Virus record (IMG/VR): IMGVR_UViG_3300014835_000015
Location: 4,477 to 68,476 of that record
Length of the DNA stretch: 64,000 nt
Source: a virus
Direction: 5' to 3' (one strand)
The notes under the pieces are model-generated. The model was not told the DNA's origin, did not search any database, and was given only the letters and a program-made list of their open reading frames with translations. This document shows, piece by piece, positions 29,801 through 56,476 of the stretch (position 1 is the first letter of the stretch; each line of letters starts with the position of its first letter). The position numbers and the translations under genes are program-made.

Positions 29801-29929
29801 AATTACCTCTATATTACCTTACTGGCTTTCAGCCAGTAAAAGCGACCACTGTAAAGTAATAAGAATTCTGTACAAGAACACTTACTACATTCTCTTTTAG
29901 TTTGATTAGTGTTAAACCAAATATGTTAC

Positions 29930-30130
29930 TTACACATAAGTTATTTTATCTTTTAAAGGATGTAAACAATATCTTATTTGATTTACAATCTCAGGGTATT
30001 CTTTTATTTCTTCAGGTAATAGTACCTCAATAGGTCTTTCATTATTATGTTTAATACCTTTAAACATTGTATGTTTTCCTTTGTATGGAAACTCTTGTCT
30101 GTACCCATCAGAATAAATAAAAATAATCAT
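29930..30130 (-). CDS. Hypothetical protein
   Basis: 66-aa ORF, ATGA-coupled to the upstream ORF. Confidence 0.5.
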   Translation of the reverse strand: MIIFIYSDGYRQEFPYKGKHTMFKGIKHNNERPIEVLLPEEIKEYPEIVNQIRYCLHPLKDKITYV

Positions 30131-30300
30131 TTGTCTGCTAACCCATTACCTTCTTTCTCAACCTCTTGAGCCAAGGTGATTAATTGTTGTAATGCTAATT
30201 GAAACAAAGGAGTATTTAATTCTTCATATTTAACATGATTACCTGTCTTACTCCATTGAAGATGATTACTACAAACTATAATTGCTTTATCAGTGTTCAT
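30127..30300 (-). CDS. Hypothetical protein (57 aa)
   Basis: MNTDKAIIVC..LADK; overlaps the lysozyme stop; below the track cutoff. Confidence 0.45.
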   Translation of the reverse strand: MNTDKAIIVCSNHLQWSKTGNHVKYEELNTPLFQLALQQLITLAQEVEKEGNGLADK

Positions 30301-30760
30301 TAAATAATTCCCATTCTGCTTGTCTTCTTTTAGTTAAACCATTAACTTCTTTATGATTTACTTTATTCCACTTAGCAAATTCCACACCTACATCAAAATC
30401 ACCATCATTAATTTTTCTTAATAGTGTAGAAGCTTTAAATGCACCAATACCAACATTATAAATAAAACTAACTAATGCTCCTCTTTGATTTTCTGTAAGT
30501 TTAGTTCTGATAAAGGCAGTTACAGCATCTTCATATTTAACTAAAGTTAAATTAAATAATTCTAATGCTTCTTCTTCTGTTATTGGTTTATCTGAAAGTT
30601 TAACTTTAGTACCATCTAGATACATAGTTGAGCCAATACCAATAGTAGGTACACCAGCAGAACATAAATAAGGTTTAAGTCTAATACCTTCAAAATGTTT
30701 AATTAATTCAATTGCTTTTTGATTTATCATCATTAATCTCTTATCATTTAGTGTAGACAT
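30290..30760 (-). CDS. Endolysin, GH24 (T4-like/RrrD) lysozyme
   Basis: FEGIRLKPYLCSAGVPTIGIG (E-x8-C-x5-T triad), QRGALVSFIYNVG, GLTKRRQAE. Confidence 0.9.
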   Translation of the reverse strand: MSTLNDKRLMMINQKAIELIKHFEGIRLKPYLCSAGVPTIGIGSTMYLDGTKVKLSDKPITEEEALELFNLTLVKYEDAVTAFIRTKLTENQRGALVSFIYNVGIGAFKASTLLRKINDGDFDVGVEFAKWNKVNHKEVNGLTKRRQAEWELFNEH

Positions 30761-31156
30761 AGTATAGAACTAAAAAGAAGAGATAGTCCAATATTTTTTG
30801 AAAAACAAAAAGTTTTCAGAAAAAATAAAAATTATGTACTAACTCAAAAGTTTTACAAAATAAAATAAATTGTGTATGAATCCATTACACTAGGTAGATA
30901 GAATGTTATTAAGAGACCACCCCCCGTATTAAAGTCTTAATCATGTATTTGAAAACATACCCCTACCTTCATATAAGCTCATAGCTCAACGATACACACT
31001 CACTGTGAGTCATTACATTGCTCATGTCTTATCGTTGCTTATACGTCATCCTCGTAGCATATAGAGCTATATATGAAGAGCATTTAATGTAGTAGATACA
31101 ATCATGTGTCTCATCATACGTCATGAGTATGATGCTTAATCCAATTGGAGAGTGTT

Positions 31157-31480
31157 ATGTCTGCATTTACAAAAGAACTACTTACTGCTGTAAGCCAATC
31201 AGTATCACTGTTACCTTTAGTAACTACTGCTACTGGACAGGTTATCGTCAAAACTGCTAGTGCAGCAGTTAATGGTATAACAGCTATTGATGAAGGGTTT
31301 GCATACGGAGCAGACTATATGACTGACATCCGTAAGGATCAGCTTGCTTTATTAGCATTGAAACAAGACTATCGTGATGTCATTGAAACCAAAGCTAAAG
31401 CTGCTGTTGTAGCTGGTGATGAAGATTCAATACTTGCTGCATACAAAAAGATGCAATCTGCATTCGAGGACATCGACTAA
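31157..31480 (+). CDS. First early protein (positional analogue of N4 gp1)
   Basis: ATG at 31157 after GGAGAG; 107 aa; own promoter motif and terminator. Confidence 0.6.
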   Translation: MSAFTKELLTAVSQSVSLLPLVTTATGQVIVKTASAAVNGITAIDEGFAYGADYMTDIRKDQLALLALKQDYRDVIETKAKAAVVAGDEDSILAAYKKMQSAFEDID

Positions 31481-31487
31481 TAACATT

Positions 31488-31509
31488 GACTCAAGGATGA
31501 GTCTCTTTT
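31488..31509 (+). terminator. Intrinsic terminator
   Basis: GACTC-AAGGAT-GAGTC followed by TCTTTT. Confidence 0.55.
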
Positions 31510-31536
31510 AATAACAATAACTAAAGGTGAAGTGTC

Positions 31537-31659
31537 ATGACATACAAAGTAAATACCGATGGAACAATCGAAGTCATCAGCTATGATGAAGAAGAGTTAT
31601 CACTGGAAAGTGGTAATGAATGGTTATCAACTTGGAATGAGGAACATTCTGAAGATTAA
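31537..31659 (+). CDS. 40-aa acidic early microprotein
   Basis: MTYKVNTDGTIEVISYDEEELSLESGNEWLSTWNEEHSED; AAGGTG RBS. Confidence 0.6.
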   Translation: MTYKVNTDGTIEVISYDEEELSLESGNEWLSTWNEEHSED

Positions 31660-31666
31660 ACAATAT

Positions 31667-31696
31667 AGCTACTCTTCGGAGTAGCTTATGTTTTTC
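31667..31696 (+). terminator. Intrinsic terminator with cUUCGg loop
   Basis: AGCTACTC-TTCG-GAGTAGCT then T-rich tail. Confidence 0.7.
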
Positions 31697-31755
31697 ATTT
31701 AAAGCATTTAATGTAATAGAGTAATATTGCTCTATTCCCTGATCAGGAGAGTGTT

Positions 31756-31926
31756 ATGAACCAAGATGAATTAGCTTATCTGCAAGCTTATGAAGCAGAG
31801 AATCAAGTATTCTGGGATGCAGTTGAGTCTATTGACGATGCTGTATGGAATGCTAAATTAGATGATCTTGACCCTAAGATTATCTATCATGATTCAAAAG
31901 GTAACTTATTACCTCGCTGGATGTAA
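31756..31926 (+). CDS. 56-aa acidic early microprotein
   Basis: MNQDELAYLQAYEAENQVFWDAVESIDDAV...; AGGAG RBS. Confidence 0.65.
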   Translation: MNQDELAYLQAYEAENQVFWDAVESIDDAVWNAKLDDLDPKIIYHDSKGNLLPRWM

Positions 31927-32122
31927 CAAAAAAGACTCATTCCTTAATTGGTTTGAGTCTTATTGTTTATCATAAAGCTACACATAAAGCACACAGCAGA
32001 GATAGACAAGTATGAACACTAGAAACAGATAGTCATATAAATATAGACACACTTAGTGTATTTATATATAATACCCTTAAAAGCATTATAATTAACTATA
32101 AAATAACTGTCAAGGAATATTC

Positions 32123-32749
32123 ATGTCTACAAACAACTTTAAAGAAACACCTAGAATTAGAGCTAATAACAAAGCTAAAGTATATGGCATAGGAGTTAAT
32201 GATTCTCCTTATGTAGTTCAATACCTAGAAGAAGGTAAGACTATTACATGTCCATACTTTACAAGATGGAAGAGAATGTTAGAAAGATGTTATTCCCCAA
32301 ATTCTATATCAGAATATCAAACCTATACAAAGACTAAAGTCTGTGATGAATGGTTAATATTTACTAACTTTCGTAATTGGATGATTACTCAACAATGGGA
32401 AGGTAATCATTTAGATAAAGACATCATTGGTGATGGAACTTTATATAGTCCTGAAACTTGTAAATTTATTCCTCAAAGTTTAAATAATTTACTTATGTTA
32501 AACCAAGCTTCAAGAGGAATATATCCTGTAGGTGTTAGTTACATTACTAGAGAAAGGAAATATAGAGCATCTATTTGTATAAACTCAGTTAGAAAAGATA
32601 TTGGTATGTATAAGACAGTAGAAGAAGCTGTTTTTAACTACATAAGAGTTAAGAAAGAACACTTACTTTCTGTTGCTAACTTACAAACAGATATTGATTT
32701 AAAAAATGGATTAATAAAGTTTGCTAACAGTATTACTGTTGATAGTTAA
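32123..32749 (+). mobile_element. HNH-type homing endonuclease
   Basis: VYGIGVND..WKRMLERCY..VCDEWL..LDKDI..YSPETC; paralogue of 42132. Confidence 0.75.
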
Positions 32750-32878
32750 ACACTAATGTAATGTTATAACATAACACTTACAATGTATAAACATAAAAGC
32801 ATTCTATGTAATAGAACTTCTTAGAAGTATCTTTCAATGTGGTGTTCCACCACTCAAATACATTATTGGAGAATTACT

Positions 32879-33454
32879 ATGGAACTCTATTGCTTAACAT
32901 TTCCGAACAACAAAAAATATATTGGTATTACATCTAAAACTGTACAACAAAGATTTAATGCTCATTGTGCAATAAAAGAAAGTAGACGTAATGCTTGTCA
33001 ACATGCTATCCATAAGTTTGGTAAAGAAAATATACTTCTAACTACTTTAGCTATAACAAATAGTTGGGAACTATTGTGTTTAGCAGAAATTGAAGTCATT
33101 GAAAAGTATAATACCTTTGGTTCAGAAGGTTACAATCTAACTATTGGTAGTGAAGGTTACTGTATAAACTCAACTAAAACCAGTAAAGATTACTCAGAAA
33201 CGTACAGATTATCTAACTCTGAATATATTAAAAAATATACTGAGAAATATAAAGAACAAAAGAAACTTTACGATATTCAATATATTGCTAAAAATAAAGA
33301 AGTAATGAAACAAAAAGCTAAAGTAAAGTTAGCTAACAAAATAGCTTCTATGTCTGAAGAAGAATTACTTATAAAGAAACAAAAGAAAATTGCTTATGAT
33401 TTAGTATACAAAGAAAGAAGATCTTTATTAAGAAAACTTAGTAAACAAAGATAG
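32879..33454 (+). mobile_element. GIY-YIG homing endonuclease
   Basis: LYCLTFPNNKKYIGIT..RFNAH..E..IEKYNT..GYN; probable ATG at 32879. Confidence 0.8.
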
Positions 33455-33557
33455 TCTATTGTGGTTGTTACCAACCACTTTAAACACACTTGGTTTAAAA
33501 GCTTAAAAGCATTTTATGTGTTGGAATAATCCACTAACAATTATAAAGGTGAATAAT

Positions 33558-33815
33558 ATGCACGTTGATTACATCGTAAAACAACTTAACAAATCTGATA
33601 ATACTTTACTTGTTAAAGTAACAAACCAACTTAACTTGAAAGCAAAGCAAACTGCTTTTAATGCTTCATCTGTTAAATCTTGCCCTTTAATGCCTGAAAG
33701 TGTTAAAGAAAGTATTACTCAAGAAGCTAATGATTCAGCAATAATCTTAGAACATTTCTTAGGTACTATGCAGATGTTTCAAAACATGTTAAACAAGGAG
33801 AACTCTAATGATTAA
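33558..33815 (+). CDS. Hypothetical early protein
   Basis: Probable start MHVDY after AAGGTG. Confidence 0.55.
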   Translation: MHVDYIVKQLNKSDNTLLVKVTNQLNLKAKQTAFNASSVKSCPLMPESVKESITQEANDSAIILEHFLGTMQMFQNMLNKENSND

Positions 33816-34185
33816 GATAGTAAAAGTATATGACAAACAAGTCGTAGGAACTCACAGAGAATACTGTGGTAGACCTGGTAAAGGTGAATTAGGATTATTA
33901 GGTAACTCATTCGCTGCTAATGTAACTCACTCAAATAGAGATGAAGTATGTGATAAATTTCATGAATACTTTCACTCTAACATCCCTCAACGTGCAAAAG
34001 AACTTGTTGAAATAGCTAAAACTCAAGATATTGAATTAGCTTGTTTCTGTCAATCACCCCATGATGTTGTTAAGAAAAGATGTCATACCGAAACAATTAA
34101 AGCTTATATAGAATCTCAACTTAATAAACCAGTAATGACCTATGTTAATGGTGATTGGGTTGATGCTAGAACACTTATAATGTAA
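33808..34185 (+). CDS. DUF4326 family protein
   Basis: YCGRPG..LGNSF..RDEVCDKF..LACFC..CH motifs. Confidence 0.75.
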   Translation: MIKIVKVYDKQVVGTHREYCGRPGKGELGLLGNSFAANVTHSNRDEVCDKFHEYFHSNIPQRAKELVEIAKTQDIELACFCQSPHDVVKKRCHTETIKAYIESQLNKPVMTYVNGDWVDARTLIM

Positions 34186-34285
34186 TTAGCGAAAGAGAAC
34201 GAAGTCATTAAGACGGAGTTCTCTGAGCGTTAAAGGGCATTTTATGTAGAAGACAATTGTGTCTTAATTTATTGGAGTATGTGTT

Positions 34286-34678
34286 ATGAAAGTATTAGTT
34301 GCTGGTGGTAGAGACTTTGATGATTATGATCGTCTTAAGTCTGATTTAGATACTCTTAAACCAACTACTATTATTAGTGGTATGGCTAGAGGAGCTGATA
34401 GTTTAGGGGCTATATATGCTTCTAAACATTGTGGATTACAAACATTTCCTGCTGATTGGAATCGTTATGGTAAAAGTGCAGGTTACAAACGTAATCAACA
34501 AATGCTTGATGAAGGTAAACCAAACTTAGTATTAATCTATTGGGATGGTACTTCTAAAGGTACTGGTCACATGGTTGATATTGCTAAGAAAGCTGGTATC
34601 AAAACTGTAATTAAATATTATGGTGTTGATGCTCATAACTTAAACCAAGCTCATGAAATAGAACAATCATCTTACTAA
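34286..34678 (+). CDS. DUF2493/YspA SLOG-family protein
   Basis: VLVAGGRDF..IISGMARGAD..PADW..AGYKRNQQML..SKGTGHMV. Confidence 0.85.
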   Translation: MKVLVAGGRDFDDYDRLKSDLDTLKPTTIISGMARGADSLGAIYASKHCGLQTFPADWNRYGKSAGYKRNQQMLDEGKPNLVLIYWDGTSKGTGHMVDIAKKAGIKTVIKYYGVDAHNLNQAHEIEQSSY

Positions 34679-34688
34679 GGGGAATACT

Positions 34689-34853
34689 ATGTACGCATTA
34701 CAAACACTATATGATGAGTTTATTACCACAATTGATGGTAGAGGTTACTATACCTCAAATGTCTCATCTGAAAATGCTCTAACTTGGGACACATTAGAAG
34801 AAGCACAAGCTGTTGCTGATTGCTTTGATAATGTTGCTGTTGTAGAACTTTAA
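34689..34853 (+). CDS. 54-aa acidic hypothetical protein
   Basis: AAGGG RBS; MYALQTLYDEF..VVEL; below the track cutoff. Confidence 0.5.
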   Translation: MYALQTLYDEFITTIDGRGYYTSNVSSENALTWDTLEEAQAVADCFDNVAVVEL

Positions 34854-35064
34854 CATAACATAGCTCAAGGATGAGCTTTAAAGGAGTATTTATGTGGAAA
34901 GTAAACGAGAATCTCATTATCCATTGCGATAATAAACCACCTCCATTTGAACCAAGAAATATATGGATACTCATCCCTCTCTTGATTCTACTGGTTTACT
35001 TAATGTTCAAACACCTTCATTAAGACACCAAATATTTGATTTAAGACACTTTAGGAGAAAACCT

Positions 35065-35229
35065 ATGTCGTATTATAAGAACAAACAAATTGAAGCTGAG
35101 GATGAAAGAATTGTCCTCTTTGCTGAACAAAAAGCTATTCTTAAAGCTTACATAGCTGAACAAAAAGCTCAACAAGAAGCACAAGCTAATATGTACTCGT
35201 ATACTCTTAAAGAGTTTGGTTTACTCTAA
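35065..35229 (+). CDS. Hypothetical protein
   Basis: AGGAG RBS supports MSYYKN rather than the track start at 34963. Confidence 0.5.
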   Translation: MSYYKNKQIEAEDERIVLFAEQKAILKAYIAEQKAQQEAQANMYSYTLKEFGLL

Positions 35230-35453
35230 TGCAGTGTGAAAAGGTGAGAAGTGATTTAAGATCACGTTATGGTACAAGATTACCTACGCAACAGTGTAGT
35301 AAGAATGCTGTAATAGAGGCATCTGATGGAAGAAATCTTTGTAGTAAGTGTTTTAATACTTGGTATAAAAAGAACTATCCTGAAGATACTAAAACTATTA
35401 AAGATTCTTACAAAACCACTCCTGCTAACTATTTTAGGTTTATAAAAGACTAA
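35229..35453 (+). CDS. Small Cys-containing (Zn-binding-like) protein
   Basis: QC..QC..LCSKC. Confidence 0.5.
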   Translation: MQCEKVRSDLRSRYGTRLPTQQCSKNAVIEASDGRNLCSKCFNTWYKKNYPEDTKTIKDSYKTTPANYFRFIKD

Positions 35454-35555
35454 TTATAAAACACCAGTTATCTATTAGCTGGTGTTTACTTAAGCTTAAA
35501 AGCATTTTATGTAGTGGAATAATATCGTTCCTATTAATTATAAAAGGTGAATATC

Positions 35556-35915
35556 ATGGCTTATACAGAACAAGCTCCATCAGTAGCTAACACAAACACT
35601 GCAAAACAAGCTTTCATTAACAGTGAAGCTGGTGATCAATTAGGCTTCTTCAGTCTTTCAAATCACATAAACGAAAATCAATTTCAACGTGTATTGGTTG
35701 CGTTAAATGACCCTGAAAAACAACGTAAATTAAGAGTTGTTGAAGGCAAAAACAAGAATGGTAAGGCTTATGCAACAGTCAGAAATCCTTCTGATGTTGT
35801 ATTAGGTATCTTATCTGGATACTCTGCATCAACAATTCTTGCAATTGGTGTTGGAACAGCAATATTCCATGATGCAACTCCTATTGAAGATGTAACTGAC
35901 ATCTTGAACTTCTAA
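35556..35915 (+). CDS. Hypothetical protein in its own promoter-terminator cassette
   Basis: AAGGTG RBS; promoter motif at 35497; terminator at 35922. Confidence 0.65.
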   Translation: MAYTEQAPSVANTNTAKQAFINSEAGDQLGFFSLSNHINENQFQRVLVALNDPEKQRKLRVVEGKNKNGKAYATVRNPSDVVLGILSGYSASTILAIGVGTAIFHDATPIEDVTDILNF

Positions 35916-35921
35916 ACTATT

Positions 35922-35950
35922 GGACTCCTTAATTGGAGTCCTTTGTTTTT
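35922..35950 (+). terminator. Intrinsic terminator
   Basis: GGACTC-CTTAATTG-GAGTCC-TTTGTTTTT. Confidence 0.7.
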
Positions 35951-36145
35951 CTTATATCAGCAAAGTGGCTTTCAGCCACTTTACTCCCAAAGCCTAATAT
36001 GGTGTGTTATTCACTTCTTATTAGATAGTCCTTTTTATTAAGTTTAAAAGCATTTTATGTGTTGGTAAAACTCGTTACCACTCAACCACTTGTTTTAAAA
36101 ACTTTTGTGTGTTGAAAAATTACTTTAACTTTTGTGAGGTGTGTT

Positions 36146-36379
36146 ATGTCTGTAGCTGTATTGAAATTAGAAGATGAAACTCTTGTTGCTTTTAACTTAA
36201 ACATGGTTTCTCGTATGGATATGAATAAAGATGAGTTTTACTTTATTCATGAAGGTGTGCTGTACACAACGTCAGATAATAAAGGTTCATCAAGAAGATT
36301 AAGATTACATCCTTCTACATTAGAAGAAGGAAACATATATAGCCCTAAAGCTATGTTTGATAAATTCTGTAATCTTTAA
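36146..36379 (+). CDS. Hypothetical protein
   Basis: GAGGT RBS; ORF track. Confidence 0.55.
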   Translation: MSVAVLKLEDETLVAFNLNMVSRMDMNKDEFYFIHEGVLYTTSDNKGSSRRLRLHPSTLEEGNIYSPKAMFDKFCNL

Positions 36380-36390
36380 GGAGTTAAACC

Positions 36391-36984: not shown

Positions 36985-37038
36985 TTGATAGATAGTGGTC
37001 TAACGACCACTACTTTCCACTAATTAGGAGCATTTATC

Positions 37039-37230: not shown

Positions 37231-37246
37231 CTTTTGGAGATAACTA

Positions 37247-38164
37247 ATGTTAGATAGATTAGCTCAGATAGTCAACGAGGATTTGTATAGTAAGAAGCAT
37301 GTCAGAAGACTTGTCAGGGAAGATATTGAACGTAACTTAGATGGAAAGATTACCCAATGTAAACAGTTACTCGCAGACTTCCTTGCACAAGAATACTTAT
37401 ATTCAAGAGGTGCAAGAATCACTCATCTATGTGATCATTTGTATAATGGTTACATATCAGGTGATGAGATAGTCCTAGATGTTTTAGTAGCTTGTCTTGG
37501 TTCAGAATCACAGTCTATACAAGCTGTGTGTGGTGCTATTTATCCATCTCTTAAATACTTGGAGGATATTAATGGTGTAAAGATGGTAGCAGATATATTG
37601 TTTGTTCTGTGTGAATCAGACTTATATGACATCTATCATAATACACAGAAAGAGTTATGTATTAGAAGTGTGTACAAGCTTGAACCAATAACATTACAGG
37701 CTATTAATAGAACTAAGTTTCTACCACCAATGTTATGTAAACCAAACAAAGTTGTTAGTAATAATGACTGTGGTTTCATTACATTCAAAGAACATTGTGT
37801 CTTAAAAAGACATAATCATCATGATTTACCAATTTCACTTGATGTATTAAATATCCAGAATGCAATAGAACTTTGTTTAGACCCATTCGTACTTGAGTTC
37901 GAGAAAGAGTTTAAGATGAAGGATGAATACAAAGATAAAACTGTACTTCAGTTAAAAGAAATTCAAGATCAGTTTGAATTACAGAAAACTGAGACTTATG
38001 CTTTGTACGAAGATTTATTAGATAGAGTGTTTCATCTACTACACAGGAATGATTCTCGCGGAAGACTTTATTCAAGTGGATATAGTATTAACTACCAATC
38101 ATCCGAGTATGATAAAGCGATGATTAATATAACAAAAAAAGAATTTATTGAGGTGACACAATGA
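37247..38164 (+). CDS. RNA polymerase II subunit 1 (N4 gp15-like)
   Basis: FLPPMLCKP, CVLKRHNHH, LDVLNIQN, NDSRGRLYSSGYSINYQS. Confidence 0.9.
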   Translation: MLDRLAQIVNEDLYSKKHVRRLVREDIERNLDGKITQCKQLLADFLAQEYLYSRGARITHLCDHLYNGYISGDEIVLDVLVACLGSESQSIQAVCGAIYPSLKYLEDINGVKMVADILFVLCESDLYDIYHNTQKELCIRSVYKLEPITLQAINRTKFLPPMLCKPNKVVSNNDCGFITFKEHCVLKRHNHHDLPISLDVLNIQNAIELCLDPFVLEFEKEFKMKDEYKDKTVLQLKEIQDQFELQKTETYALYEDLLDRVFHLLHRNDSRGRLYSSGYSINYQSSEYDKAMINITKKEFIEVTQ

Positions 38165-38335: not shown

Positions 38336-39343
38336 ATGCAACCAATAACTCCGTATGAATACCTCCTAATAGATGTAGCAAGTCAAGTAGGATTGGATAA
38401 AGAAACGTGGGGAGATAGAATTGAATGGACTAGAGACAATATGTCTCAGCTTGAAGATGGTATAGCTATAGCAAAGAAACCGTTATTGTTTGCTAAGGCT
38501 GTTAATGCACTTCGTATGGTACAGAGAGGAGAAGAAACTAATCATGTAATAGGTCTTGATGCTAGTGCATCGGGAATAAGTATTGCTGGTTTGTTAGTTG
38601 GTTGTGAGAAAACCCTGATTCAAACCAATCTAATAAATACTGGTAAGGTACAGGATGTGTATTCTAATCTTACACAGGAGATGAATAATCATTTAGATAC
38701 TGAAATTCAGGTAGCTAGAGATGATGCTAAATCAGCCTTAATGAAAGGAGGAATCTATGGTTCTACAAGAATACCAAAAGAATTGTTTGGTGAAGGTACA
38801 CCTGAACTAACTCAGTTTTATGCTGCACAACAAGAAATAGTTCCATGTACTGTTGAGATAGCTAAAGACTTAAAGTCTGCTTGGAATACTAAGAAAGGTG
38901 ATTATACATGGACATTGTGGGATGGACATACAGCTAGAGTATTAGCTCATGAAGCAGAGAATACATCTCTTCGTATAAGAGATATTCACGGAACTAAGAG
39001 TTCATTCACTTATGAGTATATGAAACAAGGTGTACTTACCGATTATAGCATTCCTATCATTGCAAATATTGTACAAAGTTGTGATGCCTGTATTTGTAGA
39101 GAGTTAATCAGAAGATGTTATAAGAGTGGTTTTAATATATTAACCATTCATGATGCTTTCTACTGTCATCCAAACAATGTACATGTAATGCGACAACATT
39201 ACTTAGACATCTGTATCTCTCTTTATAAGATGAATTACTTGTCTAACATCATCTCAGAACTATTGGGTCGTAAGGTGATTTATAAACAATGGGATACTAA
39301 TTTAGAAGGTAAAATGAGAGACGCTGAATATTTCCTATCTTAA
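38336..39343 (+). CDS. RNA polymerase II subunit 2 (N4 gp16-like)
   Basis: YLLIDVASQVGLDKETW, motif A GLDASASG, motif B RDDAK..IYGS, motif C IHDAFYCHPN. Confidence 0.92.
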   Translation: MQPITPYEYLLIDVASQVGLDKETWGDRIEWTRDNMSQLEDGIAIAKKPLLFAKAVNALRMVQRGEETNHVIGLDASASGISIAGLLVGCEKTLIQTNLINTGKVQDVYSNLTQEMNNHLDTEIQVARDDAKSALMKGGIYGSTRIPKELFGEGTPELTQFYAAQQEIVPCTVEIAKDLKSAWNTKKGDYTWTLWDGHTARVLAHEAENTSLRIRDIHGTKSSFTYEYMKQGVLTDYSIPIIANIVQSCDACICRELIRRCYKSGFNILTIHDAFYCHPNNVHVMRQHYLDICISLYKMNYLSNIISELLGRKVIYKQWDTNLEGKMRDAEYFLS

Positions 39344-39350: not shown

Positions 39351-39387
39351 GAACTTCTTACTTAATTGTAGGAAGTTCCTATTTTTT
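39351..39387 (+). terminator. Intrinsic terminator after RNAP2
   Basis: GAACTTCTTA-CTTAATTG-TAGGAAGTTC then T-rich tail. Confidence 0.7.
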
Positions 39388-39740: not shown

Positions 39741-39924
39741 TGTGGCGTTACCGCCACTACTACCCACATATAGCAACCATAAGACTGTAGTGTCAGAGCG
39801 AACTTGTGAGCGATAGACACAGATAGTCGTTGGTTGCGTTAAAGTAAAATTCTTTTAAAAACACTCTAAAAATAATAGAAGAGAGGAATCAGTTAAGTCT
39901 TTGATTTACATGGTTTAATTCAGT

Positions 39925-40082
39925 TTTACATTCATTACCACATAACTTCTATTCATCACTGTGATGAATAGATATGGTTCATTTGATGAATAACTGACAT
40001 TCATCATAAAAAAGTACAAAAAAATAATGTACAATTAAGTATTCATCATTTATAATGAATCTTTATTTAACTTAGAGATGAA
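39925..40082. repeat. Cluster of ATTCATCA/TGATGAAT sites, including an 11-bp perfect inverted repeat
   Basis: CTATTCATCAC-T-GTGATGAATAG at 39949-39971; further copies near 39984, 39999, 40041 and partial ones near 40056, 40077. Confidence 0.75.
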
Positions 40083-40084
40083 TT

Positions 40085-40582
40085 ATGACAACAAGTCTAT
40101 ATCAAACAACAGACACGCATATTGATACTGGTACAGGAGAGATTAAAGCAATAATATCTCATTCAGTAAGGAAAATAGAAAATGAAGATTCTTTTGTGAA
40201 AAAATATGTATCAAGACTAAGTACGATTAAAGGTGTTCCTTTAAGTGGTAGAGATGTTTTAGACTGTTTCCTAGGCATTATGAACTACGATGGTATTGTA
40301 GATTTAAGTACAGCTACTAAACAGGAGATTTGTGAACATTTGTCTATTACAGGTGTTGGCTTTGCTAATAATATTACTAAGTTAATAAAAGCAGACTTAA
40401 TTACTAGAGTAGGTAAAGGAAGATACTTAGTAAATCCACACTATTTTGCAAAAGGTTGCTGGTCAGATGTTCGCAAACAACGTATTGATTACATTGAATT
40501 ATCAATGAAATTTACTTCTAAAGGAGAAGAAATATCTGTAAATACAGTAATGAAAGAAGAGTTAGAAGATGATATAACTTAA
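40085..40582 (+). CDS. RepL-like winged-helix replication/maintenance protein
   Basis: IDTGTGEI..FVKKY..MNYDG..ITKLIKADLI..GRYLVNPHYFAKG. Confidence 0.7.
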   Translation: MTTSLYQTTDTHIDTGTGEIKAIISHSVRKIENEDSFVKKYVSRLSTIKGVPLSGRDVLDCFLGIMNYDGIVDLSTATKQEICEHLSITGVGFANNITKLIKADLITRVGKGRYLVNPHYFAKGCWSDVRKQRIDYIELSMKFTSKGEEISVNTVMKEELEDDIT

Positions 40583-40626
40583 TGTGGTGTTCCACCACTG
40601 GTTTACCACAAATAAAAGGATTACTT

Positions 40627-42131: not shown

Positions 42132-42761
42132 ATGACTAAATTTGTTGAAACACCTGTAACAAACAGAAGCTTAGCTCAACGCAAATTAGTATTTGGTAAA
42201 GGTATTAATGATGCTAATTATTTATTATCTTATAAAGTAGATAATAAAACACAATCATGTCCTTATTATGTAGTCTGGAAAAGCATGTTAAGAAGATGTT
42301 ATTCTCCATTGTTCCATATAAAACAATCTACATATATAGACTGTTCTGTTTGTAATTCTTGGCTTACATTTAGTAACTTTAAATCTTGGATGATGTTACA
42401 GGATTGGGTAGGGAAACAGTTAGATAAGGATATTTTAGAAAAAGGTAATAAAGAATATTCACCCGAAAATTGTATTTTTGTTACATCTCAGCTAAACGTT
42501 TTATTAAAAGATACTCAGAAAGTTCAAGGTGATTATGGATTAGGGGTTTACTGGAATACTGAAAAAAGAAAATTTAAAGCATCGTATAGAAACAGGGGTA
42601 TAGAGAAATTTTTAGGATATTTTGTGTTAGAAAAAGATGCTATACAGGCATATTGTTTTAATAAAGCTAAATATATTAAAGAAATTGCAGAAGAACAATC
42701 CGAATTAAAACTAAAGAATGCTTTAATAAATAGAGCAAATGATTTACTTTTAACTATTTAA
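42132..42761 (+). mobile_element. HNH-type homing endonuclease upstream of nrdJ
   Basis: VFGKGINDA..WKSMLRRCY..VCNSWL..LDKDIL..YSPENC. Confidence 0.78.
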
Positions 42762-44643: not shown

Positions 44644-44678
44644 ATAATGTGGTGTACCACCACTAACATCCAACAAAC

Positions 44679-44706
44679 AAAACTCCTAATAAATAGGAGT
44701 TTTTCA
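44679..44706 (+). terminator. Intrinsic terminator after nrdJ
   Basis: AAAACTCCTA-ATAAA-TAGGAGTTTT. Confidence 0.65.
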
Positions 44707-48798: not shown

Positions 48799-48858
48799 TA
48801 ACAGAAGATTCTCTTAAAATTAGATGAATCATTACAACAATTATTTGAGGAATAGAAA

Positions 48859-49766: not shown

Positions 49767-50369
49767 CTAACCTATGGAGGAACTCATTTCGGATTAATAG
49801 ATACGGTTGGTTTACCAAAAGAAACAGCATTATCTATTGAAAATAACTACCATACCTTATACGCAGTGTCTGATGAATGGGTAGCTGATAAAATAGAGCA
49901 AGCAACGAATACAGGTTATGTAGAATTAGCATTCGGAGGAAGGCTTAGAACACCCATATTGAAGCAAACCATATTAGGTAACAGAAATACCCCTTATGAA
50001 GCTAAACAAGAAAGCAGAACAGCAGGTAATGCTCTAGGTCAGTCGTATGGAATGATGTGCAATAGAGCAGCTATTGAAATGCAACAAAGAGTATTAGCTT
50101 CAAAATATGCTTTAGATATTAAACCAGTATGTATGATTCATGATGCCCTGTATTTCCTTATTAAAGACACTGTAGGCTGCGTAGCATGGTTTAATAAGAA
50201 CTTAACTGAATGTATGGCTTGGCAAGAATTAGAAGCAATACAGCATGATACTGTAAAGATTTCAGCTAGTGTAGACTTATTCTACCCTAACTGGAGTACA
50301 TCTATTGGTTTACCAAATAACTCAACAATGAAACAAATACTTGATATTTGTAAAAAGGAATACAAATGA
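49767..50369 (+). CDS. DNA polymerase C-terminal segment, in frame after the TAG
   Basis: LTYGG (rest of motif B), RTAGNALGQS, MIHDALYF (motif C); no convincing independent start. Confidence 0.85.
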   Translation, partial: LTYGGTHFGLIDTVGLPKETALSIENNYHTLYAVSDEWVADKIEQATNTGYVELAFGGRLRTPILKQTILGNRNTPYEAKQESRTAGNALGQSYGMMCNRAAIEMQQRVLASKYALDIKPVCMIHDALYFLIKDTVGCVAWFNKNLTECMAWQELEAIQHDTVKISASVDLFYPNWSTSIGLPNNSTMKQILDICKKEYK

Positions 50370-50626
50370 AGAGATTTAGTCACACATGGTTTAATGGAAT
50401 GATTGAAGTTCCAAATGGTGAGTATATAAAAGAAAAAGAAGCTTGTGTATATTTACAGCATTGGATAGATAATCAAACTAAGTTAGAAAAGGTCATTGAA
50501 GCTCAGTTACATGACTGGAAGGAGCTTCGTATAATATATGATGCTGAAAGAATACTTACTCTATTACTAACTGCTGGACTATTAGTCTCAGCATTCTTTA
50601 ACATTTTTCAATTTTTAATAAAATAA
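50366..50626 (+). CDS. Hypothetical protein with C-terminal TM segment
   Basis: ORF track; hydrophobic C-terminus. Confidence 0.5.
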   Translation: MKRFSHTWFNGMIEVPNGEYIKEKEACVYLQHWIDNQTKLEKVIEAQLHDWKELRIIYDAERILTLLLTAGLLVSAFFNIFQFLIK

Positions 50627-50627
50627 T

Positions 50628-50843
50628 ATGGAACATAAATTAAAAGGACTTGCCAACGAAATACAAGAACAAAAGAGCATCTTGGTAGACGTAGGACTAA
50701 TAATAGAATTTGGTTTACGAAATTATAGAGAATACCTTAAAACATTATTTTATGAACCAATGTCACTAAGAATGGGTAATTTCATTAGACAATTACACGA
50801 TATGTCTGATGAACAAATTGAACTTACACTACAAAAATTATGA
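50628..50843 (+). CDS. Hypothetical protein
   Basis: ORF track. Confidence 0.5.
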   Translation: MEHKLKGLANEIQEQKSILVDVGLIIEFGLRNYREYLKTLFYEPMSLRMGNFIRQLHDMSDEQIELTLQKL

Positions 50844-51031
50844 ATAAATCAACATTACTTTTAGTTAAAACTAATGCTCAATTACTTATTTCAAGAATTG
50901 ATAAAGTATTAGATGTAGTACCAGATCAACAACTTAAATGGAACTCGGGTTATCCAAAAGAAACTGCTTCACTAAGAAGAACTTCAATGGAACTTACAAG
51001 ATCTTTAGCTGACCTTAGACAAAATAAATAG
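50840..51031 (+). CDS. Small phage hypothetical protein
   Basis: SGYPKETASLRRTSMELTRSLADLR; ATGA coupling. Confidence 0.55.
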   Translation: MNKSTLLLVKTNAQLLISRIDKVLDVVPDQQLKWNSGYPKETASLRRTSMELTRSLADLRQNK

Positions 51032-51130
51032 AAAATGTAAATGTGGCTTTCGCCACTTTTACCCACAATAAAAAGGACTTTGATATGTTTTTAACAATAC
51101 TAACTTATTTATTAAGGAGATTTTTATGTA

Positions 51131-51365
51131 GCACTGCTAGGTTAAGCTGTTCCACAGCCTGTACACATAGTAAAATAATACAAGTTCGTAAGAGGTTAGT
51201 TGCTTTAAACCTCCTAAACCGTTTAGAAGAAATAGCAGTGTTTCGTTAGTATAGAGTCATGGCTCTAAGTAGAATAGCTTAATAACTACTTAAATTTGAA
51301 TTCCTGATAAAGAATTGTTAAACTTATTTCGTGTTTTCCCTACGAAGGGTAAAAAGGGATACTAA
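51131..51365 (+). ncRNA. Candidate structured ncRNA (two multibranch domains) upstream of the tRNA
   Basis: Closing stems GCACTGCTA/TAGCAGTGT (51131-51241) and TTAGTAT/ATACTAA (51246-51365) with several internal hairpins; follows a promoter-motif variant. Confidence 0.5.
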
Positions 51366-51370
51366 ATTTC

Positions 51371-51442
51371 ACTCCTCTAGCATAAAGGTTATGCACCCAC
51401 CTCATACTTGGAAAGATACAAGTTCGACTCTTGTGGGGAGTA
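51371..51442 (+). tRNA. tRNA with CAT anticodon (Met or Ile2), weak anticodon stem, no encoded CCA
   Basis: Acceptor ACTCCTC/GGGGAGT, D-arm GCAT/ATGC, loop CT-CAT-AC, T-arm ACAAG-TTCGACT-CTTGT. Confidence 0.75.
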
Positions 51443-51450
51443 TCAAACAT

Positions 51451-51621
51451 GGATAATACAAGAACTATTACTTAGATAAATACTTGCAACTATTTACTAA
51501 GATGTTTGATTGAAGGAATTCTTGTAGCATATTATATAATTTTTAAATCTTATTAGACAGAGCGAAACTGTAGAGTATAATTATATTTATGTCCTTGGTT
51601 CGATTCCAAGATTATCCACCA
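51451..51621 (+). ncRNA. 171-nt tRNA-like RNA with acceptor stem, T-arm and CCA but two elongated internal arms
   Basis: GGATAAT/ATTATCC-A-CCA; T-arm CTTGG-TTCGATT-CCAAG. Confidence 0.65.
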
Positions 51622-51677
51622 AACTATGTGAGATGCGCTCTCATAGTATTCACCGAAGAGGTTATCCTCTAAACTCA

Positions 51678-51712
51678 AACCTATACAGCTTACACTGTAT
51701 GGGTTCTTTTTT
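51678..51712 (+). terminator. Intrinsic terminator closing the ncRNA/tRNA unit
   Basis: AACCTATACAG-CTTACA-CTGTATGGGTT-CTTTTTT. Confidence 0.8.
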
Positions 51713-51935
51713 AAGTTCATTCATGAAATTTGCTTGGATTTTGACGATGAAAAGATACCTATAATTTTAGGTTAGGAGTAAGTGTACTTAAAAATGAATA
51801 AACAATATCAACCTTGGAATCTATATAACTGTCCTATACATTGGTTTAATACAGTTAAAATGAAAACATGTTCATGTAATAGAAATCCTAACTGTAAGCA
51901 ATGTCACGGTTTTGGATATAAAAGAGAAAATAAAA

Positions 51936-52118
51936 ATGAATCCATTTATTAATATACCATTAAATACCAAGAAAGTATTTGTTATGGGAATAGATCATTC
52001 AGGAACTGAAATTTATATTGCTGTAGATTCCTTAGATGAAACAGTAATTCAAACCAAAAAACAAGAATTACAACAATATCTACTTAATCAACCTTTACCA
52101 GAGAAAGACTATGCGTAA
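51936..52118 (+). CDS. Hypothetical protein
   Basis: Probable start MNPFIN. Confidence 0.5.
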   Translation: MNPFINIPLNTKKVFVMGIDHSGTEIYIAVDSLDETVIQTKKQELQQYLLNQPLPEKDYA

Positions 52119-52398
52119 AATTACTTTAGATGAATTAAATAATTTATTACTTACTAGACAAAGTTTTAAGTTTAAACCCACAAATAAAAAGATATTTAAA
52201 CTTATTGTTACATTATGTAGTATTCATGGTATTTGTTTTCCTTGTAAAACTACTTTTAAATATGCTTCTCAAAGAGATTTTGTTTCTATTGATACTTGGT
52301 GTAAAAGAGAAGATTATTTTATTGCTACACCAGTAATGGTAGAAGATCAGAATCAAGAAGAAATAGAATTAATTTTACCTACCGAGTTTCTAGTATGA
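52111..52398 (+). CDS. Hypothetical protein
   Basis: ORF track. Confidence 0.55.
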   Translation: MRKITLDELNNLLLTRQSFKFKPTNKKIFKLIVTLCSIHGICFPCKTTFKYASQRDFVSIDTWCKREDYFIATPVMVEDQNQEEIELILPTEFLV

Positions 52399-52616
52399 GT
52401 TTTGAAGATATGGTTGACTCTGATCAAGGTGCATCCTTTGAGCAATTACATTTAAAAATGACTTTAGATAATAGAGTTATGTGTTCAGGCTGGGATGGTA
52501 AGTCAAGAAGGTGTAAATCTTGTGGTAGAGAAATTGAAATAGAAAGATTAAAGTTAATTAATGCAACTCAGTGTAGAGCTTGTGTACAACCAGTAGATGA
52601 GGATGGGGATGAATAA
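52395..52616 (+). CDS. TraR/DksA-like C4 zinc-finger protein
   Basis: N-terminal DMVD; CKSCGREIEIERLKLINATQCRAC. Confidence 0.7.
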   Translation: MSFEDMVDSDQGASFEQLHLKMTLDNRVMCSGWDGKSRRCKSCGREIEIERLKLINATQCRACVQPVDEDGDE

Positions 52617-52998
52617 TAATTTTAAAGTAGGAGATTTTGTAAAATTAATAGATAAAAGTTGCTTTCCTAATTATCAAGGTAAACAAGAGGTAGTAAGTGT
52701 AGCTGGTACAGATTTATGTATTAAATATTGTGATAATCCTTGGTACTATAATAATTGGGAACTCTATGTAGAATCTGTTAAAAAGGATTTAGGTAAACAC
52801 TATAGATTTTCTTTTAAAGGATTGAAAATAGATGTTTACAGAATACTTGAAATATTCCAAATAACTAATCCTGCACAACAACATGCAATTAAGAAATTAC
52901 TTAGAGCAGGTAAATCAATTAAACCATTAAGCCAAGATATAGATGAAGTTATTCTTACTCTTGAAAGGTGGAAGGAAATGATTATAGAAAATGAATAA
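52597..52998 (+). CDS. Phage protein, DUF3310-like C-terminus
   Basis: KHY..IDVYRILEIF..QHAIKKLLRAGK..QDIDE. Confidence 0.55.
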   Translation: MRMGMNNNFKVGDFVKLIDKSCFPNYQGKQEVVSVAGTDLCIKYCDNPWYYNNWELYVESVKKDLGKHYRFSFKGLKIDVYRILEIFQITNPAQQHAIKKLLRAGKSIKPLSQDIDEVILTLERWKEMIIENE

Positions 52999-53359
52999 TT
53001 TACTATTTATATCATTATTACTTTTACCTTTTCATACACAAGCATTGACTAAATCAGAACAAGAATGTGCCAGTAAGAATATTTATTTTGAAGGTAGAAG
53101 TAATAAACAAGATTGGTTTAAAATTCTTCAAGTTGCTAACAATAGAAAACAACATCCAAAAAAGTATGGAGCTAAATCATCTCATTTATGTGATGTGGTT
53201 CATAGCTCACAATACACTACAGCTCGCTTTAAGCATATTAAAGAACCTAAAGTGTACAAAGAGATTACTTTGTTTGTATCACGTCATAAACAGCCTGTAC
53301 GATCCAATTTAACGTACTTTTCAGGACATCATAAATTACATTTTAGGAGTCACTTTTAA
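52991..53359 (+). CDS. SleB-like cell wall hydrolase (Hydrolase_2) with signal peptide
   Basis: ECASKNIYFEGR..VANNR..LCDVV..QY; hydrophobic N-terminus. Confidence 0.75.
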   Translation: MNNLLFISLLLLPFHTQALTKSEQECASKNIYFEGRSNKQDWFKILQVANNRKQHPKKYGAKSSHLCDVVHSSQYTTARFKHIKEPKVYKEITLFVSRHKQPVRSNLTYFSGHHKLHFRSHF

Positions 53360-53495
53360 ATGAATCAAGAAGATATTGTAGCAACAATTATTAAATTATC
53401 CTTTGTCGCACTGCTGATTACTGTTACAGCAGCGATGTTTTACACATCAATTGATACAACAAAAGATACTGTATGTATTCATAAAGAGAAAATAA

Positions 53496-54332
53496 ATGAA
53501 TAACACATCAGCAAGAGTAATAGCAGATTCTATTAATGAATCTGGAGACAGAGTAACAACTCTTGAATTGGAATATCCAAGAATCATTTTAGCCGAGTTT
53601 AATACGCATAGAATCTTCAGCAGAAACACTGCATCAAGTAGAGCTATACCAGTTAAAACTATGCTTAAAAATATCTGGAACAATATGTTTGTTCCTTGGT
53701 ATTGGGGAGCTAATCAATCAGGTATGCAAGCTAAAGTACAATTATCTAAACCAAGAAGCTTGATAGCTAATACTTTATGGAAGACAGGTGTATGTATTAA
53801 TTTACTTGGTTCATATCTTTTAAGCTCCATAGGAGTACACAAACAACTAGCAAACAGGAATACAGAATATGCGTCTTATATTAAGACTATTGTTACAAGC
53901 ACTGATTTTGATAATTTCATATCTTTGCGGTTACACCCAGATGCACAGCCTGAGATAGCTGATTTAGCTTATAAGATTAAAGTAGCTTTAGAGAATTCTA
54001 AACCAGTATTACTTAAAGAAGGTGAGTGGCATACTCCTTATGTAAACTCAACAAGAAATAATATTAGAAAATTAACTTACTATTTACCTTTTCCTAGAAT
54101 AGAGCAAGTAAACAAAGAACAAGCTAAAAAAGTATCTGTTAGTTGCTGCGCTCAAGTAAGTTATCGTAAATCAGATACATCAATTGATAAAGCTATTCGT
54201 ATTACAGATGCTTTATCTAAATCAAGACCTATTCATGCAAGTCCATTTGAACATGTATGTACACCTGGAATAGGACGAGGTAATTTAAAAGGATGGATTC
54301 AGTATCGTCAGGAGATTGAAGAATGCAGTTAA
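53496..54332 (+). CDS. thyX: Flavin-dependent thymidylate synthase-like protein
   Basis: PRIILAEFNTHRIFSRNTASSRAIP, HKQLANR, LRLHPDAQPEI, HASPFEH. Confidence 0.8.
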   Translation: MNNTSARVIADSINESGDRVTTLELEYPRIILAEFNTHRIFSRNTASSRAIPVKTMLKNIWNNMFVPWYWGANQSGMQAKVQLSKPRSLIANTLWKTGVCINLLGSYLLSSIGVHKQLANRNTEYASYIKTIVTSTDFDNFISLRLHPDAQPEIADLAYKIKVALENSKPVLLKEGEWHTPYVNSTRNNIRKLTYYLPFPRIEQVNKEQAKKVSVSCCAQVSYRKSDTSIDKAIRITDALSKSRPIHASPFEHVCTPGIGRGNLKGWIQYRQEIEECS

Positions 54333-54544
54333 GTGAACTAAATATTGGAGATACATTCTCTATCGAACAATATCATGATGAAGAGAACATGGTGGGAAAT
54401 TACTTAGTAATTAACCCTAATACAGATAACTTTAATATTACTCCTTTAGATGAATATTTTGATATGAGTAATTATTCGTTTGTTCTAAACTTAAATACCT
54501 CAACATTAGGTATCTTATTAAATACACAAGAGGTAACAGTATGA
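54323..54544 (+). CDS. Hypothetical protein
   Basis: ORF track. Confidence 0.5.
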   Translation: MQLSELNIGDTFSIEQYHDEENMVGNYLVINPNTDNFNITPLDEYFDMSNYSFVLNLNTSTLGILLNTQEVTV

Positions 54545-54936
54545 CAGATATGATTACAGACCAAACCAGTTTCATGTACTTAGGTAATCAGAGTACAACT
54601 ACTTTAAATAGAGAACAATTATGTTTATATTATTCACTGATTCAAGAAGAGTGTGTTGAATTAAAAGAAGCTTATTCTGGTGATTCCAATAGTGAAATTA
54701 TTAAAGAAGCTTGTGATGTACTTGTAGTAACACTTGGTTTACTTTTAAGTATGGGTATTGATGTTCATAAAGCTTGGCATTTAGTCCATAAAAACAATGT
54801 GTCTAAAGTCTCAAACCAAGATGCTATTGTAAAAGATGAAAATGGGAAAATACAAAAAAGTGAGGCTTCAAAATTATCTAAACTAAAAATGATGGCTGAT
54901 ATTCAAGGACTATTAAATGACAATAACTCAAGATAA
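54541..54936 (+). CDS. MazG-like/PRA-PH NTP pyrophosphohydrolase
   Basis: LIQEECVEL..KEACDVLVV..VHKNNVSK..DENGKIQK. Confidence 0.8.
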   Translation: MTDMITDQTSFMYLGNQSTTTLNREQLCLYYSLIQEECVELKEAYSGDSNSEIIKEACDVLVVTLGLLLSMGIDVHKAWHLVHKNNVSKVSNQDAIVKDENGKIQKSEASKLSKLKMMADIQGLLNDNNSR

Positions 54937-55135
54937 AACTTTAGAGTTTATATTCTGTGAACCTACTATTGATGGTTTATGGGACAGACTTATGCAAGAT
55001 AAACTTACAGAAGAAGATGTTGTATGGGAAGTATTTGAAAATAGACACGATTTAGAGTTAATTGCTATTGGTTTAGAAAATATGTTTAAAGAAGTATTTG
55101 GTTTAGGTTATCAACGTGCTTATGAGGGGGAGTAA
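54917..55135 (+). CDS. Hypothetical protein, tandem paralogue A
   Basis: QDKTLEFIFCEP..GLW..KLT. Confidence 0.55.
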   Translation: MTITQDKTLEFIFCEPTIDGLWDRLMQDKLTEEDVVWEVFENRHDLELIAIGLENMFKEVFGLGYQRAYEGE

Positions 55136-55380
55136 TGACATCATTAGCCCAAGATAAAGCATTACACATTATATTTTGTGAACCTATCTCTGAAGGTTTA
55201 TGGCTTAGAGTATTTAATAAAAAACTTACAGATAATGATGTTATATGTGATGATTTTCATTATGTAAACCATGATGCAATATCTTCCCTAGTAAAAGATT
55301 TATCTATTAACTTTCAAGAAATGTTTGATGCAGGTTATTTACAAGGGGTAAATTTAATGAAAGGACAGTCTGTTAAATGA
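55135..55380 (+). CDS. Hypothetical protein, tandem paralogue B
   Basis: QDKALHIIFCEP..GLW..KLT. Confidence 0.55.
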   Translation: MTSLAQDKALHIIFCEPISEGLWLRVFNKKLTDNDVICDDFHYVNHDAISSLVKDLSINFQEMFDAGYLQGVNLMKGQSVK

Positions 55381-56339
55381 CTTCATATACAAATAATGAG
55401 GGTATTCCTTTAGCATTATGTGTGTTATTCGTTAATGACCTTTACGATCATTCATCTGAATCTAACACAATTTCAGTTACTACCTTACTAGATTCTGTAA
55501 GACAAATAATCTTAAGCTTAAGAGCTACTGGTGAAGGTACTAAAGATGTATCTGATATGGTAGCTAGTGCATATGGAACAAGTTTGCATTCATCACTTGA
55601 AGCTGCTTGGCTTAATCCATATAAAGCTTTAGAAGAATTAGGTTATCCAGTATCTGTTGTAAATAAATTTATTGTAAATCCAAAAGAAGATTATGATTTA
55701 AAAGCATTAAACAACATTCCTGTTTATGTAGAACAAAGATCTATCAAACAAATAGCTGGGTGGAATATAAGTGGTAAGTTTGATTTAGTTATTGATGGAA
55801 GACTTAATGACTTAAAGAATAGAAAGGTATGGGCATATCTTAATTCATCTAATGATAAGAAGGATATTCTACAAGCTAGTATTTACAGATGGTTAAACCA
55901 AGATAAAGTAACAGAAGAAGATTTTAGTATTCTTTGGCTTTTTACGGATTACAACAGTCTTGAAGCATTAAAGAATCCTTTATATCCTAAACAAAGATGG
56001 TTAGAACAAAAGTTTAAGTTACTTAGTATTCAAGAAATAGAACAGTACCTTAATAATAAACTTGGTTTGATAAACCAGTATATTAATTCACCTGAATCAG
56101 AATTACCTTTATGTGACTCGGATGAATTATGGATGGGTAAATCTGTATTCAAGTATTACAAAGCTCAAGGACAAGCACGTTCTACTAAGAACTTTAATAA
56201 TGCTCATGATGCACATAAAGAAACATCTAAAGGTGGATATGTACTTGAGGTTAGAGGTAAAGCAGTTAGATGTGGATATTGCTCTGCATCTTCTGTCTGT
56301 AGTCAGTATAAGAGTCTTATAAACCAAGGTCTTATTTAA
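55377..56339 (+). CDS. PD-(D/E)XK exonuclease (N4 gp42-like)
   Basis: YTNNEGIPL, GTSLHSSLE, ISGKFDLV..DLK, RCGYCSASSVCSQY. Confidence 0.8.
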   Translation: MTSYTNNEGIPLALCVLFVNDLYDHSSESNTISVTTLLDSVRQIILSLRATGEGTKDVSDMVASAYGTSLHSSLEAAWLNPYKALEELGYPVSVVNKFIVNPKEDYDLKALNNIPVYVEQRSIKQIAGWNISGKFDLVIDGRLNDLKNRKVWAYLNSSNDKKDILQASIYRWLNQDKVTEEDFSILWLFTDYNSLEALKNPLYPKQRWLEQKFKLLSIQEIEQYLNNKLGLINQYINSPESELPLCDSDELWMGKSVFKYYKAQGQARSTKNFNNAHDAHKETSKGGYVLEVRGKAVRCGYCSASSVCSQYKSLINQGLI

Positions 56340-56346
56340 TAAATTT

Positions 56347-56423
56347 AAGCTAGTAGTTCAATGGTAGATCATCCTAATAGTAATTAGGTAGGAGTGTTAT
56401 TGGTTCAAATCCAATCCAGCTTA
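56347..56423 (+). tRNA. Degenerate tRNA/pseudo-tRNA with non-canonical anticodon loop
   Basis: AAGCTAG/CCAGCTT acceptor, GTTC-AATGGTA-GATC D-arm, ATTGG-TTCAAAT-CCAAT T-arm. Confidence 0.55.
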
Positions 56424-56476
56424 AACCTTTCATTGTGGCTTACGCCACTAATTTCCCAAACATAAGAGATAACAAT

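Follow-up and report, generated by a model that had tools for sequence, protein, structure and literature searches.

Candidate template-strand hairpin promoters in an uncultured N4-like phage

Introduction

What is the function of a family of short GC-rich hairpins that lie between the genes of an AT-rich phage? The hairpins are found in a stretch of 64,000 nucleotides (hereafter the window) that covers bases 4477–68476 of the virus record IMGVR_UViG_3300014835_000015, which has a length of 74,313 bases and a G+C content of 31%. All coordinates below are window positions. Judged by its genes, the source is an uncultured N4-like (Schitoviridae) phage. The portal, primase, and large terminase in the window belong to families known from N4-like phages, the portal and primase being of the N4 type, and the phage encodes both a two-subunit RNA polymerase (RNAPII) and a giant virion RNA polymerase (vRNAP). 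From their sequence and placement, the hairpins are likely promoters for a phage-encoded polymerase of one class or the other. On balance, the best overall explanation appears to be that they are template-strand DNA-hairpin promoters of RNAPII, that is, of the middle class. Taken by itself, the assignment to the two-subunit RNAPII, as middle-class promoters like those of phage LUZ7, could go either way.

A family of oriented hairpins

The preliminary description of this DNA listed ten GTGG..CCAC stem-loops in one orientation. This holds for nine of them, while the tenth, at 29819, has a CTGG..CCAG stem and is treated here as an outlier. In all copies the stems and loops are as described, with loops that read G-N(1–2)-A on the minus strand:

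29819..29839, plus strand: outlier copy; stem of 9 bp around a CTGG..CCAG core, TTC loop reading GAA on the minus strand
32839..32853, plus strand: hairpin copy; 6-bp stem, template loop GAA, followed after 25 nt by the ATG of a homing-endonuclease gene
33461..33478, plus strand: hairpin copy; 7-bp stem, template loop GTAA, stop codon 7 nt upstream
35965..35979, plus strand: hairpin copy; 6-bp stem (9 bp with flanking pairs), template loop GAA, CCA box
36995..37010, plus strand: hairpin copy; template loop GTTA, first open reading frame (ORF) of the RNAPII operon 28 nt downstream
39742..39757, plus strand: hairpin copy; template loop GTAA, stop codon 2 nt upstream
40584..40598, plus strand: hairpin copy; template loop GAA, ATG 28 nt downstream
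44649..44663, plus strand: hairpin copy; template loop GTA, ribonucleotide reductase stop codon 6 nt upstream
51043..51056, plus strand: hairpin copy; template loop GAAA, ATG 28 nt downstream
56435..56448, plus strand: hairpin copy; template loop GTAA, 28 nt to the ATG of the ORF preceding the primase gene

The pattern GTGG-N(3–12)-CCAC occurs 10 times in the window against 1.12 expected (100 shuffles, maximum 3), and nine of these matches are the copies from 32839 to 56435 listed above. A search of all 74.3 kb of the genome for perfect GC-rich hairpins whose loop has the form T..C gave 11 plus-strand cases and 0 on the minus strand. Folded as single-stranded DNA, all ten hairpins, including 29819, have nearest-neighbour estimates of −5.2 to −9.6 kcal/mol. 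The remaining pattern match, at 18804, was rejected as a family member; it is located inside the portal gene, lacks the family flanks, and looks like a chance occurrence.

The nine regular copies are all intergenic within the rightward early/middle block and point in one direction. They span 32839–56435, which is roughly 3–34% of the map counted from the gene-block junction, the putative genome end. Their stems have 5–7 bp, or up to 9 when flanking pairs are included, with 6 or more perfect pairs in seven copies and 5 pairs in two, and their loops have 3–4 nt (4 nt in five of the nine). The loop sequences on the template (minus) strand are GAA (n = 3), GTA (n = 1), GTAA (n = 3), GTTA (n = 1), and GAAA (n = 1), with an invariant first G and last A. 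The loop-closing pair is C..G on the template in three copies (36995, 51043, and 56435) and G..C or T..A in the remainder. A coding-strand T is found immediately 3' of the stem in every copy.

Copies had been reported to sit mostly just after stop codons, and six do start 2–12 nt past one; a tRNA ends 11 nt before another copy, and copy 35965 begins 24 nt past a terminator (35922–35941). The CCA sequence noted earlier 6–7 nt downstream of most copies is present at that distance 3' of the stem in 7/9, about 14–17 nt from the loop centre, with no G there. The distance from the end of the stem to the ATG is exactly 28 nt at 36995, 40584, 51043, and 56435 and 25 nt at 32839. Within 12 nt downstream of the stem, a coding-strand G occurs only in copy 40584 (1/9), at positions 2–3, off the expected start.

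Conservation in relatives

Relatives were collected as 72 viral loci by alignment of RNAPII homologues. The covariance-model scan of the genome and relatives that had been proposed as a check was run with a model trained on 16 copies having 6-bp stems and 3-nt loops. In the genome, the model recovered four family members outside the training set, missed 33461, and gave no additional copies above the chance hit at 18804. Among the relatives, the family as scored by this model is found only in a close clade of four genomes (L005, L122, L123, and L189), and elsewhere there is one borderline match, a LUZ7 hairpin. The count of T..C versus G..A loops over all 72 loci gives a clear signal in few loci beyond those of the close clade.

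In the four genomes, the template loop reads G..A in every copy found, and GNA hairpins are present on both sides of RNAPII. The stems vary while their pairing is retained. At the site matching 35965, the 5' arms read GTGGCT, GTGGAC, ACGGAC, and CAGGAC in four genomes, each complemented on the other arm, and the upstream terminator and downstream box are conserved while the stem varies. At the site before the RNAPII operon (36995), a T:A pair is replaced by C:G in L189, again with compensation. Two-sided changes are seen in 5/6 stem pairs, a count that carries a selection bias because the copies were chosen as perfect hairpins; only the comparisons at matching sites are free of it. Copy 44649 is identical in L005 and has one mismatch in L122, and some other copies are missing or decayed in relatives. 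A division of the family into 3-nt and 4-nt loop classes has been rejected because the loop length switches at matching sites.

The outlier 29819 is located in a leftward lysis operon, between a 66-aa ORF and the holin gene and downstream of the endolysin gene. It is kept at the matching position, ~1 kb from the junction, in all four genomes of the clade, with two-sided stem changes, and its stem resembles the other copies of the same genome here and in L123. Its polarity is that of the family, and transcription from it, if it is a promoter, would run antisense to the endolysin gene. Since this copy is conserved and keeps its polarity against the local genes, a DNA-level signal fits better than an RNA one.

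Gene layout and a second motif

Late and structural genes run leftward up to ~30760, and early and replication genes run rightward from ~31150. The features that bear on the choice of polymerase are as follows:

3..5732, minus strand: N-terminal 1910 aa of the giant virion RNA polymerase; the ORF extends past the window and exceeds 3402 aa
31079..36060, plus strand: box A zone with seven copies, starting at 31079, 31702, 32797, 33507, 34233, 35500, and 36048
37247..38164, plus strand: RNAPII subunit (N4 gp15-like); phrog_2166, N4-like RNA polymerase, E 1e-56
38336..39343, plus strand: RNAPII catalytic subunit (N4 gp16-like); phrog_2051, E 1.5e-92, PF00940 in relatives
39351..39378, plus strand: strong terminator directly 3' of the RNAPII genes, with no box A copy to its right

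The polymerase domain of the giant virion polymerase ORF matches the N4 mini-vRNAP (2po4) with E 3e-9; the full-length protein gave no match in PDB, Pfam, or PHROG, and the domain alone matched N4. The phage is divergent. Its RNAPII is only ~40% identical to that of the closest cultured phages, and megablast of 12 kb against GenBank phages found nothing.

A second motif has been identified among the first genes of the rightward block, and we will use the term “box A” for it. It consists of a 14-nt AT-rich box (consensus AAAGCATTTTATGT) followed at once by a hairpin with a variable, compensated stem. The seven copies are confined to the leftmost 5 kb, all rightward and all left of terminator 39351, which is likely the early/middle gene boundary. 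They are positioned 50–85 nt upstream of start codons and head the first small genes, each ended by a terminator, beside the likely genome end. Box A is conserved in L005 and L122, shares a core in L123, and always lies left of RNAPII. K-mer motif discovery in L123 and L124, which is noisy in AT-rich DNA, flagged a box A analogue, and a scan of viral contigs for the 14-nt box returned single chance matches only. A host-promoter reading of both motifs was dropped, as sigma-70-like sites are rarer here than in shuffled sequence.

Promoter function and the choice of polymerase

Several observations argue that the nine hairpins are promoters. They occur in an N4-like phage that carries the RNAPII subunits, an N4-type portal and primase, and a giant vRNAP; the family is far above chance and strictly oriented; its members occupy intergenic sites with a CCA box and a fixed spacing of 28 nt (25 nt in one case) to the ATG; the G..A template loops are invariant and the stems change with compensation at matching sites; and there is published precedent in N4 (PMC4496689) and LUZ7 (PMC9163698). 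A possible mechanism is that underwinding of the DNA would cause the GC stem to extrude on the template strand, where the G..A loop would close into a compact cap. A phage RNA polymerase of the single-subunit type would then recognise the hairpin, probably together with a single-stranded-DNA-binding cofactor, and would start RNA ~8–10 nt past the stem at the conserved CCA box. A start at this box would give a leader of ~19 nt carrying the ribosome-binding site. Box A would in turn serve the injected virion polymerase at the left end.

The most serious competing explanation exchanges the two roles, so that the hairpins would be promoters of the injected virion polymerase over 24 kb and box A would be an RNAPII (middle) promoter or something else. 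We regard this as possible but improbable. In its favour, a GNA-type template loop on a 5–7 bp stem is the hallmark of N4 vRNAP promoters, the N4 RNAPII promoters are short and AT-rich and resemble box A, and in several relatives a hairpin copy stands immediately before the RNAPII operon. It would require, however, that a few injected molecules transcribe all the replication genes while RNAPII serves only the leftmost 5 kb. Position speaks for RNAPII in other ways as well. Five copies lie right of the RNAPII genes, among the replication genes, and four lie in the early region, whereas box A is found only left of terminator 39351 and heads the first genes near the likely genome end. In N4, vRNAP must begin transcription after ~500 bp of DNA has entered (PMC4496689); here the likely genome end is ~2 kb away from the first hairpin, whereas a box A copy is no more than a few hundred bases from that end. 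By position, box A thus looks early and the hairpins look middle, although a structural comparison with N4 would allow the reverse.

A number of findings weigh against assigning the hairpins to RNAPII, or against promoters of this kind at all. The hairpin structure is nearer to the N4 virion-polymerase promoters than to the AT-rich N4 RNAPII promoters, and the C..G closing pair needed in N4 is present in only 3/9 copies. The RNAPII operon has a copy immediately in front of it, both here and in L122, L123, and L189; an early operon might be expected to carry an early promoter. There is no G at the expected start site, unlike in N4 and LUZ7. At site 36995, L122 has one G.T pair, which would be an A.C mismatch on the template strand, and the L005 counterpart of copy 40584 is degenerate. 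A homolog of the LUZ7 cofactor Drc was not found when the early ORFs of the LUZ7 locus were compared by BLASTP with every ORF of this genome, which is a weak test; the sole match was an RNAPII subunit, and it is possible that the cofactor is unrelated to Drc. Finally, copy 44649 would feed straight into a terminator, a point that the preliminary description had already raised against a simple promoter role. This last objection falls away, because in the Pseudomonas phages LUZ7 (L173:8238–8300) and LIT1 (L188:8977–9045) the RNAPII gene is followed after 12 nt by a GC-rich hairpin with a TCC loop, hence a GNA-type loop on the other strand, and ~20 nt further on by an intrinsic terminator.

Two further explanations do without promoters. 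The hairpins could act in RNA, as 5' stabilisers, processing sites, translation-related leader structures, or stop signals for a phage polymerase, which we consider unlikely. The placement of copies just past stop codons and at a fixed 28 nt ahead of start codons would suit such a role, as would the G.T pair of the one relative copy, which is tolerated only by the plus strand or RNA; the box A at 32797 also lies upstream of a hairpin, which would then be part of the transcript. The asymmetry of the loop points the other way, as it reads G..A on the template and U..C in RNA, and U..C is not known as a stable type of RNA loop. Moreover, the stems are not followed by a U-run and are too short for RNase III, an Rfam search returned two tRNAs only and no match for the hairpins, and the RNA form of copy 29819 would differ, given that this copy keeps its DNA polarity against the local genes. 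The hairpins could also be single-stranded-DNA signals, such as primase or origin sites or injection checkpoints. Stable DNA mini-hairpins can act as priming signals, and copy 39742 precedes a repeat-rich non-coding stretch. Nevertheless, this would leave the exact start-codon spacing, the CCA box, and the restriction to rightward intergenic gaps unexplained, and the leftward half of the genome holds one copy only (29819), so we consider it very unlikely. From the range of roles listed in the preliminary description, dispersed phage-polymerase promoters therefore fit, while priming sites, injection checkpoints, and RNA processing fit less well.

A further scheme can be drawn, which we offer as rather doubtful: the virion polymerase of this clade would no longer use GNA hairpins, box A would drive the early genes, GNA and GNNA hairpins would belong to RNAPII only, and copy 29819 might give an antisense RNA that delays the endolysin until a late stage of infection.

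Other features around the hairpins

Some of the copies have neighbours that deserve description. Copy 44649 is followed by a terminator, and copy 51043 heads a unit of a small ORF and a tRNA-Met that ends at terminator 51678:

44679..44703, plus strand: terminator-like hairpin with T-run, beginning 16 nt past copy 44649

The tRNA-like gene at 56346–56424, which ends 11 nt upstream of copy 56435, has an Rfam tRNA score of 41 bits, and ARAGORN reports an irregular anticodon loop for it. Directly 3' of copy 39742, up to the ORF at 40085–40582, there are 327 nt of non-coding DNA (39758–40084) with a long-range inverted repeat and repeated short words; possible roles of this stretch are an origin or a non-coding RNA transcribed from the putative hairpin promoter. 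Three homing or HNH endonuclease genes are present (32123–32749, 32879–33454, and 42132–42761). The second of these is flanked by the first two regular hairpin copies (32839 and 33461) and, on that ground, may have arrived as an insertion.

A third type of hairpin, with A/T-GGA loops on the coding strand, is found at 31488–31503 and 34862–34877 in the window and at 4930 and 6737 in L005. The hairpin at 31488 is followed by a T-run and is terminator-like, and the one at 34862 stands directly before a ribosome-binding site.

The 9-mer TAAACCAAG occurs 15 times on one strand and 14 times on the other over the whole genome, where ~0.5 per strand would be expected (for example at window positions 2766, 23640, 32499, and 62625). 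Both reading frames that are free of its stop codon are used, and it is mostly oriented with the local genes. It ranks first among the 9-mers of L122, occurs also in L005 and L189, and is lacking in more distant relatives.

The record begins and ends with the same nine bases (genome positions 1–9 and 74305–74313), which points to circular permutation of the assembly. The record start cuts through the ORF of the giant polymerase.

Comparison with known systems

In coliphage N4, the early promoters P1–P3 read by gp50, the vRNAP, are template hairpins with a G-R-A (G-purine-A) loop, while the RNAPII promoters are short and AT-rich and are used on single-stranded DNA with the cofactor gp2 (PMC4496689). 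The hairpins described here resemble P1–P3 in being template-strand hairpins with a 5–7 bp stem, a loop with G first and A last, and a coding-strand T after the stem; like N4, the phage has a giant virion polymerase, and the two enzymes are homologous. The hairpins differ in that the 3-nt G-purine-A loop is present in only 3/9 copies, as GAA, with GTA in one and 4-nt loops in five. The template C at +1, four bases past the stem, is also lacking; the putative start box is farther off and lacks a G. In addition, the copies are spread over 24 kb, unlike the three promoters at the N4 genome end.

Hirao and colleagues have reportedly described stable DNA mini-hairpins with GNA or GNNA loops, the classic motif being said to have a C..G closing pair and a stem of 2–3 bp. 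The G-first, A-last loops found here would likewise permit a G.A pair of the sheared type seen in the structure of the N4 promoter (PMC4496689), although the stems are longer and the closing pairs variable.

The closest parallel is LUZ7. The preliminary description had drawn its comparison with N4 alone, but for LUZ7 there is already a map of two classes of dispersed hairpin promoters. Mapping of 5' ends gave nine early transcription start sites, the majority preceded by a hairpin, and four middle ones; in the middle promoters the hairpin lies ~15 bp before the start, which is preferably at a G, and it is GC-rich, with at least 6 bp in the stem and 3–4 nt in the loop (Putzeys et al. 2022, PMC9163698). 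Hairpins matching the descriptions of both classes are visible in the LUZ7 and LIT1 loci. The family described here shares with the LUZ7 middle promoters the GC-rich stem of ~6 bp, the 3–4 nt loop reading G..A on the template, the location on the early/middle gene strand with sites beyond the RNAPII genes, and the presence of a two-subunit RNAPII. The order of hairpin and terminator in LUZ7 and LIT1 is also found at 44649. On the other hand, the stem sequence and loop letters differ, LUZ7 having TCC loops; the G at the start is missing here; four copies lie in the early region as well; and the early class here is apparently box A, a different element, instead of a second GNA hairpin.

With the hairpins, a divergent and uncultured branch of N4-like phages gains a candidate promoter map, which suggests that hairpin promoters outside the early region, which so far have been mapped only in LUZ7, are widespread in the family. 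Their natural variants, with 3- and 4-nt loops, variable closing pairs, and covarying stems, can help to ask what small polymerases recognise. If the division between box A and the hairpins is as proposed, evolution has redistributed the promoter types between the two phage polymerases. Hairpin promoters are already a known type of signal in N4 and LUZ7, and the family described here is most likely a further instance of it.

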